Shown in pieces: positions 1 to 4,587 of a stretch of DNA of 4,587 bases. Made by a program: the position numbers and the translations under genes. The stretch is from a virus (taxonomy: Duplodnaviria; Heunggongvirae; Uroviricota; Caudoviricetes). Position 1 is the stretch's first letter. The number at the start of each line of letters is the position of its first letter. The notes under the pieces were generated by a model. That model had not been told where the DNA came from. It made no database searches and worked only from the letters and a program-made list of their open reading frames with translations. The stretch is taken from IMG/VR virus record IMGVR_UViG_2778261227_000009, positions 1-4,587 of that record; one strand, 5' to 3'.

Positions 1-534
1 TCACTGATCTATCCCCCAACAGGCTAATGCGCTTTCCTGGTCACGACGAATAACCTGTCCATAGCAGTTATTTGAACTTATGCGGCAATCGCGCCCACCA
101 TCTTTTATCCACCAGCGAATCGCCTCGCATGCACCTTTACGATCACCAGCATTCAGCCGCTTATAAAACGTCGACGGAAAACACTTACCGGGGCCAATGT
201 TATAGGGACAAAATGACGCGATACCCGCTTTCTGTGGTTCCGTCAGTGATACCCGGATGTTTTTCTCCACCCATGCCAGCGCCTTATCACGTTCAATGGC
301 ATTAACCTGATTGCATTTTTCCTTCGACAGTTTCATTCCCGGTATGACGGGCTTACCATCCACCATGGTGGCACCACGACAGATGGTCCAGATACCCGCA
401 CCATCACGGTATGCCGTGGTGTGGTTACCTTCCTTTTCATTCAGAAACTGGTCGAGAATATCAGGCGCGGGCGCACCGACGGCAATCAGTGCCAGAACGG
501 CAGCCGACAGGCCGTATCTGATTTTTGCGTTCAT
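1..534 (-). CDS. rrrQ: SAR endolysin: a phage lysozyme (T4-lysozyme-like muramidase) with an N-terminal signal-anchor-release domain, of the R21/RrrQ type.
   Basis: The 177-aa ORF is complete, with ATG at 532-534 and stop at 1-3. The N-terminus, YGLSAAVLALIAVGAPAP (about nt 454-513), is Gly/Ala-rich and weakly hydrophobic, as expected of a SAR domain. The catalytic triad E35 (nt 430-432), D44 and T50 has the T4-lysozyme spacing E-x8-D-x5-T. The symbol is given by analogy to K-12 Qin RrrQ. Confidence 0.9.
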   Translation of the reverse strand: MNAKIRYGLSAAVLALIAVGAPAPDILDQFLNEKEGNHTTAYRDGAGIWTICRGATMVDGKPVIPGMKLSKEKCNQVNAIERDKALAWVEKNIRVSLTEPQKAGIASFCPYNIGPGKCFPSTFYKRLNAGDRKGACEAIRWWIKDGGRDCRISSNNCYGQVIRRDQESALACWGIDQ

Positions 535-597
535 GGATATTTATCAGGATTTATCGGTTTCTGCCCACGGACAGGTTTATCTGTTCCGGTCAGTGAC

Positions 598-948
598 TTA
601 AGGTTGTGATTCCGGAGGAGTCTTCAGAGAATCAGTAATTCTTCCTGGTAGCTTTCCTTTGTAGGTTATCCACACATTCTGCGCATCTAAAATTACGGGG
701 CGCTTTTCCGGCGACTGCTCATCCCCTTCACATAACCCGGCAGCAACATCCAGGAAGACCTGTCTGATGCTCCTTCTGGCTGCTGCCTCATAAAACTCCA
801 GCGCGGCACCTTCAACACGGTCCAGCGAGATGTCCAGGTCAAAAATTTCGCCGTCAAAGCGTTTTTTGTCCCGTAACGCTAAAGTTACCGTAACTTTATT
901 CTCAAAATTGCGGATCCCTTTCACAATCAGTTCATAGTTTTGAGTCAT
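598..948 (-). CDS. ydfR: DUF1327-family protein (YdfR-like) of unknown function, embedded between the holin and endolysin genes.
   Basis: This 116-aa ORF starts at ATG 946-948 with GGGGAGAG about 9 nt upstream, and that Shine-Dalgarno-like sequence overlaps the 3' end of the holin gene. The position between holin and lysozyme mirrors the K-12 Qin arrangement essQ-ydfR-rrrQ. The family name is recalled, not searched. Confidence 0.75.
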   Translation of the reverse strand: MTQNYELIVKGIRNFENKVTVTLALRDKKRFDGEIFDLDISLDRVEGAALEFYEAAARRSIRQVFLDVAAGLCEGDEQSPEKRPVILDAQNVWITYKGKLPGRITDSLKTPPESQP

Positions 949-952
949 TGAA

Positions 953-1168
953 TTACTCTCCCCGTGCAGCCTTACGCTTGTCTTCTCTGATTTTGAAGTA
1001 CAGATTTGTCAGATAAGTCAGGAAGCCCAGAACCAGACTCCCCAGTACACCAATCGCAGCCCACTGTGAAGGACTGACCTGATCAAGCCACTGTAAAAAC
1101 CAGTAGCCAGCACTACCTGCTGAGGTGCCATAGGCGACACCCGTTGTTAACTTATCCATGGATTTCAT
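953..1168 (-). CDS. essQ: Class II holin (pinholin) of the phage 21 S21 type, 71 aa, with a dual-start motif (Met1-Lys-Ser-Met4).
   Basis: The translation [71 protein letters not shown] has two transmembrane segments and a charged C-terminus, and closely resembles S21. The ATG at 1166-1168 is preceded by GAGGTGGGG about 2 nt upstream. The longer track ORF (to 1231) starts at GTG and would run through the upstream terminator hairpin, so it is rejected. The symbol is given by analogy to K-12 Qin EssQ. Confidence 0.85.
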
Positions 1169-1203
1169 AACCCCACCTCGCAGATGCGGGTGCTGTGTAA
1201 TGG

Positions 1204-1229
1204 AAATAAAAAGGCCACCTGACGTGGCC
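1204..1229 (-). terminator. Rho-independent terminator between the methyltransferase gene and the holin gene.
   Basis: The minus-strand RNA would be GGCCAC-GUCAG-GUGGCC followed by UUUUUAUUUCC. It begins 6 nt after the methyltransferase stop codon (1236-1238) and lies about 35 nt upstream of the holin start. Confidence 0.6.
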
Positions 1230-1235
1230 ACCAGA

Positions 1236-2288
1236 TTATTTCCCCACCAGCTCGTTTATCTCTTTCACTGTCTGATTAAACCGCTCTGACTCAAGCTCAA
1301 CACCTAAGGCCCGACGCCCCAGCGCCATTGCTGCTTTTATTGTGGAACCGGATCCCATAAAGAAATCAGCAACCAGATCACCAGGTCGACTACTGGCATT
1401 GATTATTTGCCGGAGCATATCCGCCGGTTTCTCGCACGGATGTTTACCCGGGTAGAACTGAACGGGCTTATGCGTCCAGACATCGGTATAAGGCACGGAG
1501 ACTGATACGGAGAAATAGCGCCGGAGAGATTTAAACTCATCCAGCAATTCAGAATATTTGCGATTCAGTGAATCATAAGATGCCACCAGCTGGTGGTGTG
1601 GTTGTTCCAGTTGTTGTTCCTGAAACTTCTCTGCCGCTATACGGGAAAACAGTGCCTGTAACTTCCGATAGTCAGCCTCATTCGGCAACTGCCACTGACT
1701 GGCACCAAACCAGTGGGAAACCATATTTTTCTTACCTGTGGCTTCGGCAATTTGTTTTGCCGTTATACCCAGTTCGGCACGAGCATCCCTGAAATACGAT
1801 ATCAGCGGTGCCATTATGTGCTGTTTGAGTTCCCTTTCTTTTGCTGCATAGCCGTCACTTTTGCCGCGATATGGCCCCTGGTAATGTTCAGCAAACAGAA
1901 CGCGCTCTGTGGCAGGAAAATATGCGCGCAGACTTTCTTTATTACACCCATTCCAACGTCCGGACGGCTTCGCCCAGATGATATGGTTAAGCACGTTGAA
2001 ACGTTCACGCATCATGATCTCAATATCAGATGCCAGGCGATGCCCACAGAACAGGTAAAGGCTTCCGGCAGGTTTTAACACCCGCCAGAACTGGGCCAGA
2101 CAGTGGTCCAGCCACTTAAGGTAATCTTCGTCCCCTTTCCACTGATTGTCCCAGCCGTTGGGCTTCACTTTGAAGTACGGCGGATCGGTAACTATCAGGT
2201 CAATGGAATCATCAGGCAGGGACTGAATAAAATGCAGGCAATCAGCGTTGATTAAATCAACACTGTTTATTTTTACAGTATTTTTCAT
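1236..2288 (-). CDS. Solitary DNA methyltransferase of the beta-class amino-methyltransferase family (N6-adenine or N4-cytosine; N6_N4_Mtase family).
   Basis: The 350-aa protein has motif IV DPPY at residues 35-38 (nt 2175-2186, codons checked by hand), HPCEKP at residues 283-288, and the SAM-binding motif I FFMGSGST at residues 309-316 (nt 1341-1364). Motif IV lying N-terminal to motif I defines the beta class. Between the motifs is a long insert of roughly residues 140-270 containing an HTH-like stretch ([14 protein letters not shown]), which is the presumed target-recognition region. No restriction endonuclease partner is visible in the window. Confidence 0.9.
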
Positions 2289-2437
2289 GGATCAGTAAGC
2301 GTAACTCTGGTAGGCTCACTCTGCTTTTGCGCTAAAGCAGTGGGCCATGGTTCGCTTGTGACCAGTAAGCATGAGCGAATGGCTGGCAGGTGCTACCAAC
2401 ACCCACCAGCCGCCCATTTTCACAAATTAAAAGCCCT

Positions 2438-2632
2438 TCATTGCTGAAGGCGTCTGTAACAGCCGAACTGGTTATCTGCCAGCCCCGCCATAACCAGCTG
2501 GGTCAGTATTAACTGACAGCGTTCGCGTGAAAGGTATGTGTTTTGTGCTATCTCCCCGACTGTTGCCGGTTTGCCGTTTAATTCATTAAAAACAACTTTC
2601 GCCGTTTCTGTCATATCTTGCGGTTTTAGCAT
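2438..2632 (-). CDS. Small (64 aa) winged-helix DNA-binding protein resembling the PapI/FaeA family of regulators.
   Basis: The ORF starts at ATG 2630-2632 with AAGGT about 9 nt upstream. The segment GKPATVGEIAQNTYLSRERCQLILTQLVMAGLA resembles the PapI/FaeA core (G-K-x-A-x-x-x-E-I-A ... Y ... R ... L ... AG) as I recall it. No HMM search was run. Confidence 0.5.
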   Translation of the reverse strand: MLKPQDMTETAKVVFNELNGKPATVGEIAQNTYLSRERCQLILTQLVMAGLADNQFGCYRRLQQ

Positions 2633-2753
2633 GTCTTTTTACCTTCATGGTTAACATGACATACCAATAACTCTTGTCTAAAAAGCCAGCAAGATAAAAA
2701 GTCAGTATTCACGACCACCAGCGTGTTTACCGTACTGCACCAATGTTTAATTT

Positions 2754-2777
2754 ATAAAAAAACCGCGAGAACGCGGT
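2754..2777 (-). terminator. Rho-independent terminator downstream of the 176-aa ORF.
   Basis: The minus-strand RNA would be ACCGCG-UUCU-CGCGGU followed by UUUUUUAUAAAUU: a 6-bp GC-rich stem, a 4-nt loop and a U6 tract. It lies 35 nt after the ORF stop at 2813-2815. Confidence 0.6.
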
Positions 2778-2812
2778 AAGTATTGTTAAAAAAAACAGTA
2801 ATTTCACTCAAC

Positions 2813-3343
2813 TTATTTAATACATTCTTTTGCTTGCGCATAATAAATTTTATGAGTATTAGCAAGCTTAACGAAGTTATACTTAACTGCCCCTAACAGG
2901 GTTCCAACTCTTGTATGCCCTTCCATTAAATGAAGCCCTGTTGTATTACTTTTCAGCAAAGCTCGATCTATAAAAAATGGAGGTTTGCACCATGTGCCAA
3001 AATTACACCAATGCGCTTTTATTTCATCATCCATAAATACATCGCCTTTACGGGTTGTGAAATCTTCAACGACCTCATGCAAAAAATCAGGGTAAGTAGC
3101 ATTATCCCCGATAGTTAAAAAATTTTTAGTGGGAAGTTCAATCAATTTCCATTCGATTTGGTCAATATTAAGATTCCCATAAAGCTCCTGAAATCTGTCA
3201 TAACCTGCCAATCCATAATAAATCTCCTGAATTACAGGAGTGGGTGCGGCGATAGAATATTGCTCACGAAGTATTCTTTCAGCCTCAGGAGCTTTAAATA
3301 TGGGTCTTTCTGAGAAAATAGGCAAAAGATCTCGGTATAACAT
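2813..3343 (-). CDS. Hypothetical protein of 176 aa encoded by an AT-rich, compositionally foreign gene (cargo/moron). Its function is unknown.
   Basis: This is an ATG-initiated 531-nt ORF with GGGGA 7 nt upstream of the start. Manual counts give about 30% GC for 3121-3180, against about 55% for 1381-1440 in the neighbouring methyltransferase gene. The translation has no hydrophobic signal peptide or membrane segment. An intrinsic terminator follows the stop codon. I do not recognise the protein family. Confidence 0.65.
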   Translation of the reverse strand: MLYRDLLPIFSERPIFKAPEAERILREQYSIAAPTPVIQEIYYGLAGYDRFQELYGNLNIDQIEWKLIELPTKNFLTIGDNATYPDFLHEVVEDFTTRKGDVFMDDEIKAHWCNFGTWCKPPFFIDRALLKSNTTGLHLMEGHTRVGTLLGAVKYNFVKLANTHKIYYAQAKECIK

Positions 3344-3372
3344 CCATATCCCCGTGTAAGAAAAAATAATTT

Positions 3373-3392
3373 AACCCGCTCGGCGGCGGGTT
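3373..3392 (-). terminator. GC-rich stem-loop (AACCCGC / GCGGGTT, 7-bp stem) between the candidate promoter and the 176-aa ORF. It may be a tR'-like terminator or a 5'-leader hairpin.
   Basis: A perfect 7-bp inverted repeat is visible in the sequence. On the minus strand it is followed by AAATTATTTTTT, so the U-tract is not directly adjacent to the stem and terminator strength is uncertain. Confidence 0.3.
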
Positions 3393-3437
3393 CTTGGACT
3401 TATCAACGGTAGACATACAAAGCCCATCGTTGGGAAA

Positions 3438-3466
3438 ATCTTATCCATGTTTTTTGAGAAATGCAA
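3438..3466 (-). promoter_or_regulatory. Candidate sigma70 promoter immediately downstream of Q, a possible pR'-like late promoter: -35 TTGCAT, 17-nt spacer, -10 TAAGAT on the minus strand.
   Basis: The minus-strand sequence is ATGCTTGCAT TTCTCAAAAAACATGGA TAAGAT TTTCCCA, read directly. It begins about 31 nt after the Q stop codon, which is where lambdoid pR' normally lies. This is a consensus match only, with no experimental support. Confidence 0.3.
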
Positions 3467-3497
3467 GCATCATGTCGCCATCTTCGGTGAAAATCAC

Positions 3498-4250
3498 TTA
3501 TCTCGTCACCTTTCTCAATTGTGCTTCAGCGTAAGCTTCTTCCTGCCAGCACTTTGTAACCAGTTTATCAATGACATCTGCATACCCCTTGTACCACTGA
3601 TAATCCGTCAGGTTCGGTACCAGTTTCTGGACATGATGCCGCGCCAGTGTGGTCGGTAAACGGCTAAACCGATTTCCATTACAACGCCCACAAATCTTAT
3701 AAACCGGCGCGCCATGAAGCCGGGTTCTTTTTTCATCCAGGACAATACCTTTACCCTTACACCCTCTGCACGCTGTGCTGACTTCTCCCTTACCATGACA
3801 ATGCTGACATAGTTCCTTCACCCACTCTTCCTTGATAACAGATTCCCCGCTTCTGGAGTGTTTTACCACCTCGCGCAATACATCATGAAATCCAGTACCA
3901 GCACAATGCTCACAGCGAGCCTTACTTGCCGCAGACCTGGAATAATCAGCAAATGCAAAATTCACAAGGTAAGGGATGATCTGTAACCGGGTTTCTTCAC
4001 TCAATTTATTCAATGTCGGGTTATCCAGTGCCATCGCGTAATTGAGCAGACCTTCAATCGCAAACTGAGGATCCTGAACACCAACTTTTGCCAGAAATAA
4101 GGCAAAACCCAGTGGTGCTTTCGACTGCACCATCCCCTGCGCAGCCATCACATCCGTAATCGTTAAACCACCAGAGCCTGTCGCCGGTGCGTCATCGCTC
4201 AATTTTGGAGATTTTGGGGAGTAATATTTTGGTAAGGCTTCAAGGTTCAT
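3498..4250 (-). CDS. quuQ: Late-gene antiterminator Q (QuuQ-like, about 250 aa) with four CxxCxGxG zinc-finger-like repeats.
   Basis: The protein is Cys/His-rich with four DnaJ-like repeats (CEHCAGTG, CQHCHGKG, CRGCKGKG, CGRCNGNR). It sits immediately upstream of the cargo and lysis genes, as Q does in lambdoid phages. The track ORF (3498..4292) begins with a GTG codon and would overlap the upstream gene by 29 nt. The first ATG, at 4248-4250 (MNLEALPKYY...), is preceded by GTGGAGAACGAGC as a Shine-Dalgarno-like sequence and leaves a 13-nt gap to the upstream stop. The symbol is given by analogy to K-12 Qin. Confidence 0.7.
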   Translation of the reverse strand: MNLEALPKYYSPKSPKLSDDAPATGSGGLTITDVMAAQGMVQSKAPLGFALFLAKVGVQDPQFAIEGLLNYAMALDNPTLNKLSEETRLQIIPYLVNFAFADYSRSAASKARCEHCAGTGFHDVLREVVKHSRSGESVIKEEWVKELCQHCHGKGEVSTACRGCKGKGIVLDEKRTRLHGAPVYKICGRCNGNRFSRLPTTLARHHVQKLVPNLTDYQWYKGYADVIDKLVTKCWQEEAYAEAQLRKVTR

Positions 4251-4263
4251 GCTCGTTCTCCAC

Positions 4264-4587
4264 TTACGCCAGTACGCCAATTGCCAGCGCACGATCGATA
4301 AAACGAAATATCAGCTCCAGCTGAGAGCCATACTTCTCTTCAAATGCCACGGTATCCGCATGCAGCTCGTCGTGATGCTTTCTGCACAAAGGCAACACAA
4401 AGAGGTCATGCGCTTTTGTACCCATTCCCCCCTGACCGTGGCCTATCAGGTGGTGGGGATCATCAGCAGGTTTTCCACAACATGCACACGGCTGTGTCTT
4501 AACCCAGCGTGTGTACTTTTCATTAACCCAGCGGCGACGTTTTGGGCGTAACATAAAAGACTCCGGCGACTCCGGATCCACTTTCAG
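4264..4587 (-). CDS. C-terminal part of a phage nin-region protein with an HNH-like Cys/His motif (DUF968 / YdfU-like). The 5' end is truncated by the window edge.
   Basis: The reading frame is open to the window edge, with no stop between 4582 and 4587, and the apparent first codon at 4579-4581 is GTG, so the gene most likely starts upstream of the window. The translation contains PCACCGKPADDPHHLIGHGQGGMGTKAHD...LPLCRKHHDELH, a zinc-ribbon/HNH-like motif. The stop is at 4264-4266, 13 nt upstream of the Q start. Naming the family DUF968 is from memory and has moderate reliability. Confidence 0.65.
   Translation of the reverse strand: MKVDPESPESFMLRPKRRRWVNEKYTRWVKTQPCACCGKPADDPHHLIGHGQGGMGTKAHDLFVLPLCRKHHDELHADTVAFEEKYGSQLELIFRFIDRALAIGVLA

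Follow-up and report, generated by a model that had tools for sequence, protein, structure and literature searches.

A prophage antiterminator of the Q-lambda family with four conserved cysteine motifs and a probable second zinc ribbon

Why should a phage late-gene antiterminator carry four cysteine motifs when the lambda protein, the reference for its family, has two? The question is raised by a gene in a 4,587-nucleotide stretch of a Caudoviricetes virus (IMG/VR virus record IMGVR_UViG_2778261227_000009, positions 1 to 4,587), the whole of which we call the window. A preliminary description, made from the letters alone, had read its product as a Q-type antiterminator with four DnaJ-like repeats and two zinc sites, and had proposed a distinct structural class of Q. 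The analysis reported here identifies the protein (window Q) as Q, the antiterminator of late-gene transcription in a lambdoid prophage, and assigns it to the Q-lambda family. It further suggests that the four motifs form two zinc sites in tandem, one of them the lambda site and the other at the base of an extra beta-hairpin located at the surface through which lambda Q contacts the beta' zinc-binding domain. We give this account as a whole a probability of about 0.7.

The Q gene occupies positions 3498-4250 on the minus strand, starts with ATG and encodes 250 amino acids followed by a stop; it is of the YdfT/QuuQ or SfV-Q type, the long form of Q-lambda. A GTG start at 4292 proposed by the open reading frame (ORF) finder was dropped because the ATG at 4250 agrees with the RefSeq annotation and Met1 is conserved in all homologues. 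In a Pfam scan, the window protein scored 179.1 bits with PF03589 (Antitermination protein Q; cut-off 26.7, E=1.8e-53), and it matched PHROG 127, 'anti-termination protein Q-like', from end to end with 364 bits. A phmmer search of the PDB sequences recovered lambda Q (7UBM, 4MO1, 7UBJ) at E=1.7e-38, with 7ubm_Q as the best hit. We then considered an AlphaFold2 (AF2) model built on an alignment of 71 homologous sequences (34-98% identity), which reached a mean predicted local distance difference test score (pLDDT) of 86 and a predicted template modelling score (pTM) of 0.71. The sole significant PDB matches of the full model in Foldseek were 8 Qlambda chains, the best being 7UBN_Q from the NusA-engaged loading complex (E=4e-15, target-normalised TM score 0.75), an engaged state in which the N-terminal segment is folded. 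Among the viral structures of BFVD the full model had no match at E<=0.001, and local matches only, to small phage proteins resembling the DnaJ cysteine-rich domain. Together with the canonical position of the gene upstream of the late promoter pR', these results bear out the assignment as a Q-type antiterminator, and the comparison with Q-family structures that the preliminary description had called for leads to Qlambda chains only.

A lambdoid prophage of E. coli C311 matches the window with 100% identity; there the Q gene, annotated ydfT, 'antitermination protein', has a DUF968 gene on one side and the methylase and lysis genes on the other. Window Q is 94% identical to YdfT of K-12 MG1655 (b1559, in the Qin cryptic prophage) and 97-99% identical to the Q proteins of SfV (98.8%), mEp460, Salmonella phage 118970_sal3 and Stx2c-converting phages. 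The gene was found in 2468 of 5426 complete E. coli genomes (about 45%) at about 90% nucleotide identity or better, and its product falls in a cluster of 3896 sequences, every one of which is named antitermination protein. The sequence of window Q is not new: this member of the Q-lambda family has long been known and is very common. Its subgroup contains K-12 YdfT/QuuQ and SfV Q, and phi80 Q is more distant.

Positions 3675-3914 of the window translate on the minus strand to CEHCAGTGFHDVLREVVKHSRSGESVIKEEWVKELCQHCHGKGEVSTACRGCKGKGIVLDEKRTRLHGAPVYKICGRCNG, which corresponds to residues C113-G192. Motif 1 (m1, CEHCAGTG, residues 113-120 with C113/C116, positions 3891-3914) and motif 2 (m2, CQHCHGKG, residues 148-155 with C148/C151, positions 3786-3809) would be the first and second knuckles of an extra zinc ribbon. 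Motif 3 (m3, CRGCKGKG, residues 161-168 with C161/C164, positions 3747-3770) is equivalent to C118/C121 of lambda Q, and motif 4 (m4, CGRCNGNR, residues 187-194 with C187/C190, positions 3669-3692) to C144/C147, all on the minus strand. Motif 4 runs 6 nt beyond the end at 3675 that had been given for the repeats, and its last residue is R instead of G; hence window Q contains three exact CxxCxGxG repeats and one CxxCxGxR. This last position is G in 51 and R in 20 of the 71 homologues. The letters of the four repeats had been reported exactly in the preliminary description, and the pattern lies beyond chance: of 200,000 composition-preserving shuffles of window Q, 17 contained at least four CxxC and 312 contained one full CxxCxGxG, which excludes a chance origin. 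The repeats are also conserved in orthologues, a point on which the preliminary description had made its reading depend. Each of the eight cysteines is kept in 70-71 of the 71 homologues (70/71 for m1, 71/71 for m2 and m3, and 71/71 for C161, C164, C187 and C190, the arm ligands in m3 and m4), and the glycine at the fifth position of every motif in 69-71. The spacing within the knuckles is less uniform. Motif 3 is often CxC (CRCxGxG) and not CxxC, as in SF6, YeP1, phi80, BZS1 and many representative proteins of both the long and the short Q forms, and m1 is CxCC in many long-form homologues; such CxC and CxCC spacings are unusual for the ligand pair of a zinc ribbon.

To place the motifs, we compared window Q with lambda Q region by region. 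According to Yin et al. 2022 (PMC9388147), residues 61-113 and 153-207 of lambda Q make up a helical 'body' that includes a helix-turn-helix, and residues 114-152 an 'arm', a zinc ribbon that binds one Zn2+. The single Cys4 site that the preliminary description gave for lambda Q is therefore correct: C118, C121, C144 and C147, which lie in two motifs, hold one Zn2+ (PMC9388147), and they correspond to C161, C164, C187 and C190 of window Q. The two proteins share about 35-43% overall identity, the fold, the N-terminal nozzle segment, the helical body and the C-terminal helix-turn-helix region. The lambda match is split into two collinear pieces (query 1-120 to lambda 1-125, and query 160-250 to lambda 117-207), leaving residues 121-159 of window Q unmatched. 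Lambda Q lacks about 43 residues of window Q (113-155 plus a 5-amino-acid spacer), which comprise two motifs and a predicted beta-hairpin and are inserted between lambda residues 117 and 118. In the multiple alignment, m1 is absent from the Q proteins of lambda, P22 and BZS1, and m2 is absent from lambda Q.

The regions on both sides of the insertion follow lambda Q. The N-terminal segment (residues 1-44, positions 4119-4250, minus strand) is equivalent to the Qlambda nozzle segment and is the region best conserved with lambda Q 1-44 (57% identical); in lambda Q, these 44 residues refold together with NusA into a nozzle in the RNA-exit channel (Yin 2022, PMC9388147). The 18 amino acids between m3 and m4 are homologous to the lambda arm segment, and according to AF2 and the lambda alignment they form the lambda-type strand-helix-strand of the arm (residues 169-186, positions 3693-3746, minus strand; strand 169-171, helix 173-179, strand 184-186). 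Within this segment, E134 of lambda Q corresponds to a native R177 in window Q (positions 3720-3722, minus strand); the E134K substitution in lambda Q raises its DNA affinity (Yin 2022, PMC9388147). The C-terminal part of the body (residues 195-250, positions 3501-3668, minus strand) is 40% identical to lambda residues 153-207, has predicted helices at 201-210 and 216-249 in the AF2 model, and is equivalent to the lambda region to which the helix-turn-helix is assigned (Yin 2022, PMC9388147).

The added segment appears to form a ribbon of its own. An antiparallel hairpin with strands 121-131 and 137-147 is predicted between m1 and m2 (residues 121-147, positions 3810-3890, minus strand) in both the full and the module-only AF2 models, and because such a hairpin brings its ends together, m1 and m2 would be neighbours. 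The m1-m2 linker measures 27-50 amino acids in alignment A2 and from a few residues to about 60 amino acids family-wide; the spacing between m3 and m4 is constant across the family, unlike this linker. The hairpin has the lowest mean column conservation of all regions (0.48) and is hypervariable in length and sequence. The residues conserved at the knuckles and base of the extra ribbon are C113, C116, G118, E142, C148, C151, G153, K154 and S158, K154 in m2 being conserved in at least 90%. Natural variants have lost adjacent motifs together. The short representative protein P0176, whose flanks are 88% (N-terminal) and 75% (C-terminal) identical to those of the long P0157, lacks a 69-residue block that extends from just before m1 to just before m3 and keeps the distinctive m3 CRCNGTG, and representative P0270 retains m1 and m2 and has lost the cysteines of m3 and m4. 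P0270 also lacks the first 35 or so residues, so that it may be either a decaying gene or pseudogene or a form that uses only the 'extra' ribbon. Taken together, the position of the lambda ligands in m3 and m4, the m1-m2 hairpin, the variation of the linker and the adjacent-pair variants P0176 and P0270 point to tandem binding of two zinc ions by the four motifs as the most likely arrangement, with one Zn(Cys)4 site formed by m1 and m2 and another by m3 and m4. Of the earlier proposal of two DnaJ-type zinc sites, the number of sites is thus probably right, given two motifs more than in lambda, the alignment, the AF2 hairpin and the variants, and the DnaJ-type arrangement is probably not.

In the DnaJ cysteine-rich domain (1EXK structure), the zinc sites are nested, motif 1 pairing with motif 4 and motif 2 with motif 3. 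If the four motifs of window Q were a true DnaJ-type domain, m1 would accordingly pair with m4 and m2 with m3, and a single V-shaped two-zinc module would replace the lambda arm. The likeness at the motif level is real: the DnaJ/Hsp40 cysteine-rich domain (PF00684; 1EXK), anti-TRAP and BSD2 share with window Q the CxxCxGxG signature and, as predicted, small zinc-knuckle beta-hairpin units, and besides lambda Q they are the sole, tentative fold neighbours of the isolated module. PF00684 scored 31.0 bits, below its cut-off of 32.7, and spanned only m2-m4; it is listed for these Q proteins in the precomputed table of the protein database, which applies a looser threshold. Because lambda Q (23.1 bits), phi80 Q (24.0 bits) and further family members score similarly on PF00684, the resemblance is a property of the arm of the whole family. 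The predicted m1-m2 hairpin, the identity of m3 and m4 with the lambda site and the loss of adjacent pairs all speak, indirectly, for neighbouring motifs as partners and against nested pairing, which we consider improbable. The DnaJ-type pattern noted in the preliminary description therefore survives as three CxxCxGxG and one CxxCxGxR motif, and does not extend to the domain as such, with PF00684 below threshold, every other DnaJ part missing and the pairing apparently tandem. The same motif resemblance to DnaJ, anti-TRAP and BSD2 domains is all that would favour a module with a DnaJ-like chaperone or thiol-redox function apart from transcription. Window Q has no J domain and no DnaJ C-terminal domain (27 bits for DnaJ_bact in NCBIfam, cut-off 377), the module lies within the Qlambda arm, and the gene sits at the canonical Q position upstream of pR', which makes such a function extremely improbable. 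The NCBIfam models gave no Q-specific match, and only DnaJ and anti-TRAP matches far below threshold.

To determine how widespread the four-motif form is, we searched 1.84 billion representative proteins (50%-identity clusters) with a long-form query, a choice that biases the census, and obtained 212 representatives that match the Q-lambda family. Among the full-length representatives kept, 31 of 40 had four motifs and 9 of 40 had two. Among sequenced phage isolates, long and short matches were about equally frequent in a sample of 40 rows distributed over the ranked list of 250 matching records, and the PHROG 127 profile has 253 positions, the length of the long form. In the multiple alignment, the Q proteins of lambda, P22 and Serratia phage BZS1 have two motifs, and an insertion of 44-70 amino acids with two more is present in window Q and in the Q proteins of SF6, Erwinia phage 49, mEp237, YeP1 and a Klebsiella phage. 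By sequence diversity, the four-motif form is thus, as far as the sampled representatives indicate, the majority architecture of the Q-lambda family. Since it is the usual form and has the same fold as Qlambda, the idea of a distinct structural class of Q has to be given up. Two-motif forms appear at four or more separate places in a neighbour-joining (NJ) tree dominated by four-motif forms. This distribution suggests an ancestral long form and repeated loss of the ribbon, with recombination between m1 and m3, two similar motifs, as a plausible route. The opposite history, starting from the short lambda form and gaining the ribbon in a single insertion, was rejected as less parsimonious in view of the scattered short forms and the close long/short pair P0157/P0176, the tree being a crude one.

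Downstream of the Q stop, on the same strand, the sequence reads in order TTGCAT, 17 bp, TAAGAT, 6 nt, AACGATGGG and a terminator. The -35 element of pR' (TTGCAT, 3461-3466, minus strand) is read from the sequence, and both hexamer and position are as annotated for phi80 pR'. It is followed by the 17-bp spacer TTCTCAAAAAACATGGA (3444-3460, minus strand), expected from its position to contain the Q-binding element (QBE), and by the -10 element (TAAGAT, 3438-3443, minus strand), likewise read from the sequence. The sigma-dependent pause element AACGAT (3426-3431, minus strand), followed by GGG, begins 6 nt after the -10; spacing and pause element are identical in lambda and P22 pR'. The lambda QBE is located in the pR' region (Yin 2022, PMC9388147). 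In the phi80 record the Q site is annotated in the corresponding spacer, 12 of whose 17 bases match the window; the spacer is nearly identical in SfV and K-12 Qin and differs from the lambda QBE. Long- and short-form phages have this promoter layout in common, with a spacer length of 17 bp in the cases counted (the window, lambda, P22, BZS1 and phi80). The first intrinsic terminator, the equivalent of tR', was identified by a terminator scan and RNA folding as a 7-bp GC-rich stem with a T-run (3362-3392, minus strand); its hairpin is annotated as a terminator in SfV and conserved in K-12 Qin, and the whole cassette is kept in both. A second, canonical intrinsic terminator found in the scan, ACCGCGTTCTCGCGG followed by a T-run, lies at 2762-2777 (minus strand).

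Because the pR' geometry and the pause element are shared with lambda and the N-terminal segment is 57% identical, the core mechanism of window Q is expected, by analogy, to be that of Qlambda. Following the Qlambda structures, Q would bind the spacer site through the C-terminal helix-turn-helix body and the zinc-ribbon arm formed by m3 and m4, and would load onto RNA polymerase halted at the sigma-dependent pause. [quoted passage not shown] In the first terminator, AAA stands between stem and T-run (GGGTTAAATTATTTTTT); in SfV and K-12 Qin the tail is T-rich directly after the same stem. The similarity to SfV and K-12 ends exactly at the end of this stem, and such a breakpoint suggests a mosaic recombination junction, which may weaken the first terminator. 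The fold of the short pR' transcript has a z-score of only -1.7, and an Rfam scan of the whole window at an E of 1 or better returned no match, that is, no described RNA family for this transcript. The interval between the Q stop and the -35 element (3467-3497, minus strand) contains GATGGCGACATGATG, to which GGATGGCAACAT...CATGAT in the same interval of lambda and P22 is similar. The BZS1 counterpart of this element is AAGATGGCGGCATG (compared stretches L002, about 1224-1265, and L009, about 1135-1160), and phi80, SF6, mEp237, YeP1 and the Klebsiella phage lack the element.

What, then, could the extra ribbon do? When Qlambda is in its loading complex, the beta' zinc-binding domain is touched by zinc-ribbon residues 110-112, 117 and 122-126, and QBE positions 11-13 by residues near the Zn ligands (Yin 2022, PMC9388147). 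Lambda S110-A112 map to S106-A108 of window Q, before m1, and H122-R126 to K165-I169, after m3. Because the insertion falls between these contact residues, the extra ribbon would emerge from the interface with the beta' zinc-binding domain, and m1 and m2 would pin the base of an added, separately removable beta-hairpin (113-155) at the junction of body and arm. On this analogy, we tentatively propose, with less than even confidence, that the ribbon serves as an accessory brace during loading, by which the contact with the beta' zinc-binding domain or upstream DNA is made larger or reshaped. The ribbon is dispensable for the core mechanism, and for Q function, because lambda-like two-motif forms do without it.

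This dispensability leads to another explanation, namely that the ribbon is a stable, functionally near-neutral ancestral decoration that is easily deleted by recombination between m1 and m3 and has no specific partner. The two-motif forms at four or more places of the tree, the fact that lambda and P22 work without a ribbon, the existence of a closely related long/short pair and the hypervariable hairpin tip are all compatible with it. The four extra cysteines, the glycines, E142, K154 and S158 are nevertheless conserved down to 34% identity, and the four-motif form dominates the diversity of the family (31 of the 40 full-length representatives). Both observations indicate that purifying selection acts on the module, and we regard a near-neutral decoration as somewhat unlikely.

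The surroundings of the insert also allow a DNA-recognition finger that reads the Q site or adjacent DNA and thereby sets promoter specificity among co-resident prophages. The insert adjoins the residues near the Zn ligands that in Qlambda contact QBE 11-13, promoter spacers vary from one Q subgroup to another with a constant pause element, the hairpin shows the hypervariability often seen in specificity determinants, and Lys154 in m2 is at least 90% conserved. However, the hairpin is not basic (net charge -1 in window Q; family median +1, range -3 to +5), and the 17-bp spacer geometry is shared by long and short forms in the cases counted. In addition, a TTTCCCGAA-type spacer is common to Erwinia phage 49, mEp237 and the Klebsiella phage, whose insert segments measure 53, 74 and 71 amino acids, and spacer similarity follows the overall phylogeny (window and phi80) and not the hairpin type. 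A DNA-reading finger is thus rather unlikely. The zinc-pinned hairpin could also be a second functional arm, with the long-form Q loading in a manner mechanistically unlike Qlambda; it might then provide a further contact, be it to the beta' zinc-binding domain, to sigma region 4 or to upstream DNA, and the hairpin might take over part of the role of NusA. We consider a second functional arm of this kind unlikely.

Several points weigh against our preferred account of tandem sites and an accessory brace at the beta' contact surface. AF2 does not model zinc, and the zinc pairing is inferred; P0270, one of the variants on which the pairing draws, is N-terminally truncated and may be a pseudogene; and the NJ tree was rooted at its midpoint and carries no support values. 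The role proposed for the ribbon comes solely from the position of the insertion in the lambda sequence. The hairpin charge of -1 and the hypervariable tip would equally fit no specific partner, and the repeated evolutionary loss argues that the contribution of the ribbon is modest. We found no experiment on a YdfT-type Q in the searchable literature and, within the library covered, no account of Q proteins with a second zinc site.

The genes around Q are those of a lambdoid late region. The lysis genes, identified by Pfam and the C311 prophage annotation, lie within 1-1171 on the minus strand (holin 953-1171, DUF1327/YdfR 598-948, lysozyme 1-534) and are the presumed targets of Q antitermination. 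The first gene after pR' and the first terminator is an ORF of 176 amino acids (2813-3343, minus strand), which is followed by the strong terminator at 2777-2762 and occupies the moron-prone slot between Q and the lysis genes. Its sole match is PHROG 8867 (unknown function, E=8e-96), with none in Pfam or NCBIfam, and it contains 'LMEGHTRVG', which may resemble the ParB/Srx-type DGHHR motif. An ORF of 64 amino acids (2438-2632, minus strand) has a sub-threshold TrmB-like match, matches PHROG 331 and is called 'TrmB family transcriptional regulator' in RefSeq; a terminator-like hairpin is located at 2450-2435. An N6/N4 DNA methyltransferase gene (PF01555, E=1e-42) follows at 1236-2288 (minus strand), and because both it and the 64-amino-acid ORF are placed between Q and the holin gene, they would be under Q control. 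Upstream of Q, a DUF968/HNH-like YdfU homologue (4264-4581, minus strand) is cut by the window end; the full DUF968 gene in the C311 prophage is 990 nt long (L001, 12767-13756). DUF968/YdfU-family genes also precede Q in K-12 Qin, Yersinia phage YeP1 and BZS1, and in BZS1 a RusA gene separates the two.

As regards the gene itself there is little new in this, since YdfT/QuuQ-type Q is annotated in thousands of genomes and its DnaJ-like motifs have already been flagged by databases. Every solved structure of the Q-lambda family is, however, that of the two-motif lambda protein, and a second conserved zinc ribbon would be present in most of the diversity of the family, including K-12 Qin, SfV, phi80 and some Q proteins of Stx2c-converting phages. 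Should the ribbon have a part in loading, the lambda structures would model most members, Shiga-toxin-phage Qs among them, only incompletely, and if it were a second functional arm, the majority architecture would load in a manner unseen in the lambda structures.

Among known antiterminators, Q21 and Q82 have the same function and the same position in lambdoid genomes as Q-lambda (Yin 2022, PMC9388147). They have no sequence or fold relationship to window Q (Q21, PF06530; Q82, PF06323): neither Pfam family was matched by window Q, and no Q21 structure was among the fold matches. The Q proteins of K-12 (YdfT/QuuQ), SfV, mEp460 and Stx2c phages are essentially the same protein as window Q, with all four motifs and point substitutions only, and K-12 Qin and SfV carry the same pR'-pause-terminator cassette downstream of Q. 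These prophages and phages differ from the window in the genes between the terminator and the lysis cassette, where the window has the 176-amino-acid ORF, the 64-amino-acid ORF and the DNA methylase gene. The DNA-binding regions of phi80 Q were reportedly the subject of a genetic study by Guo and Roberts in 2004, which Yin 2022 cites. This protein (gp17, 269 amino acids) is a four-motif long form as well, with CDCCDGGG, CKPCNGKG, CRCHGKG and CDRCGGRG, and with about 40% identity to window Q it falls in the same clade of the NJ tree. It differs in an insert segment of 71 amino acids, as against 52 in window Q, and in an m3 that is CxC and not CxxC.

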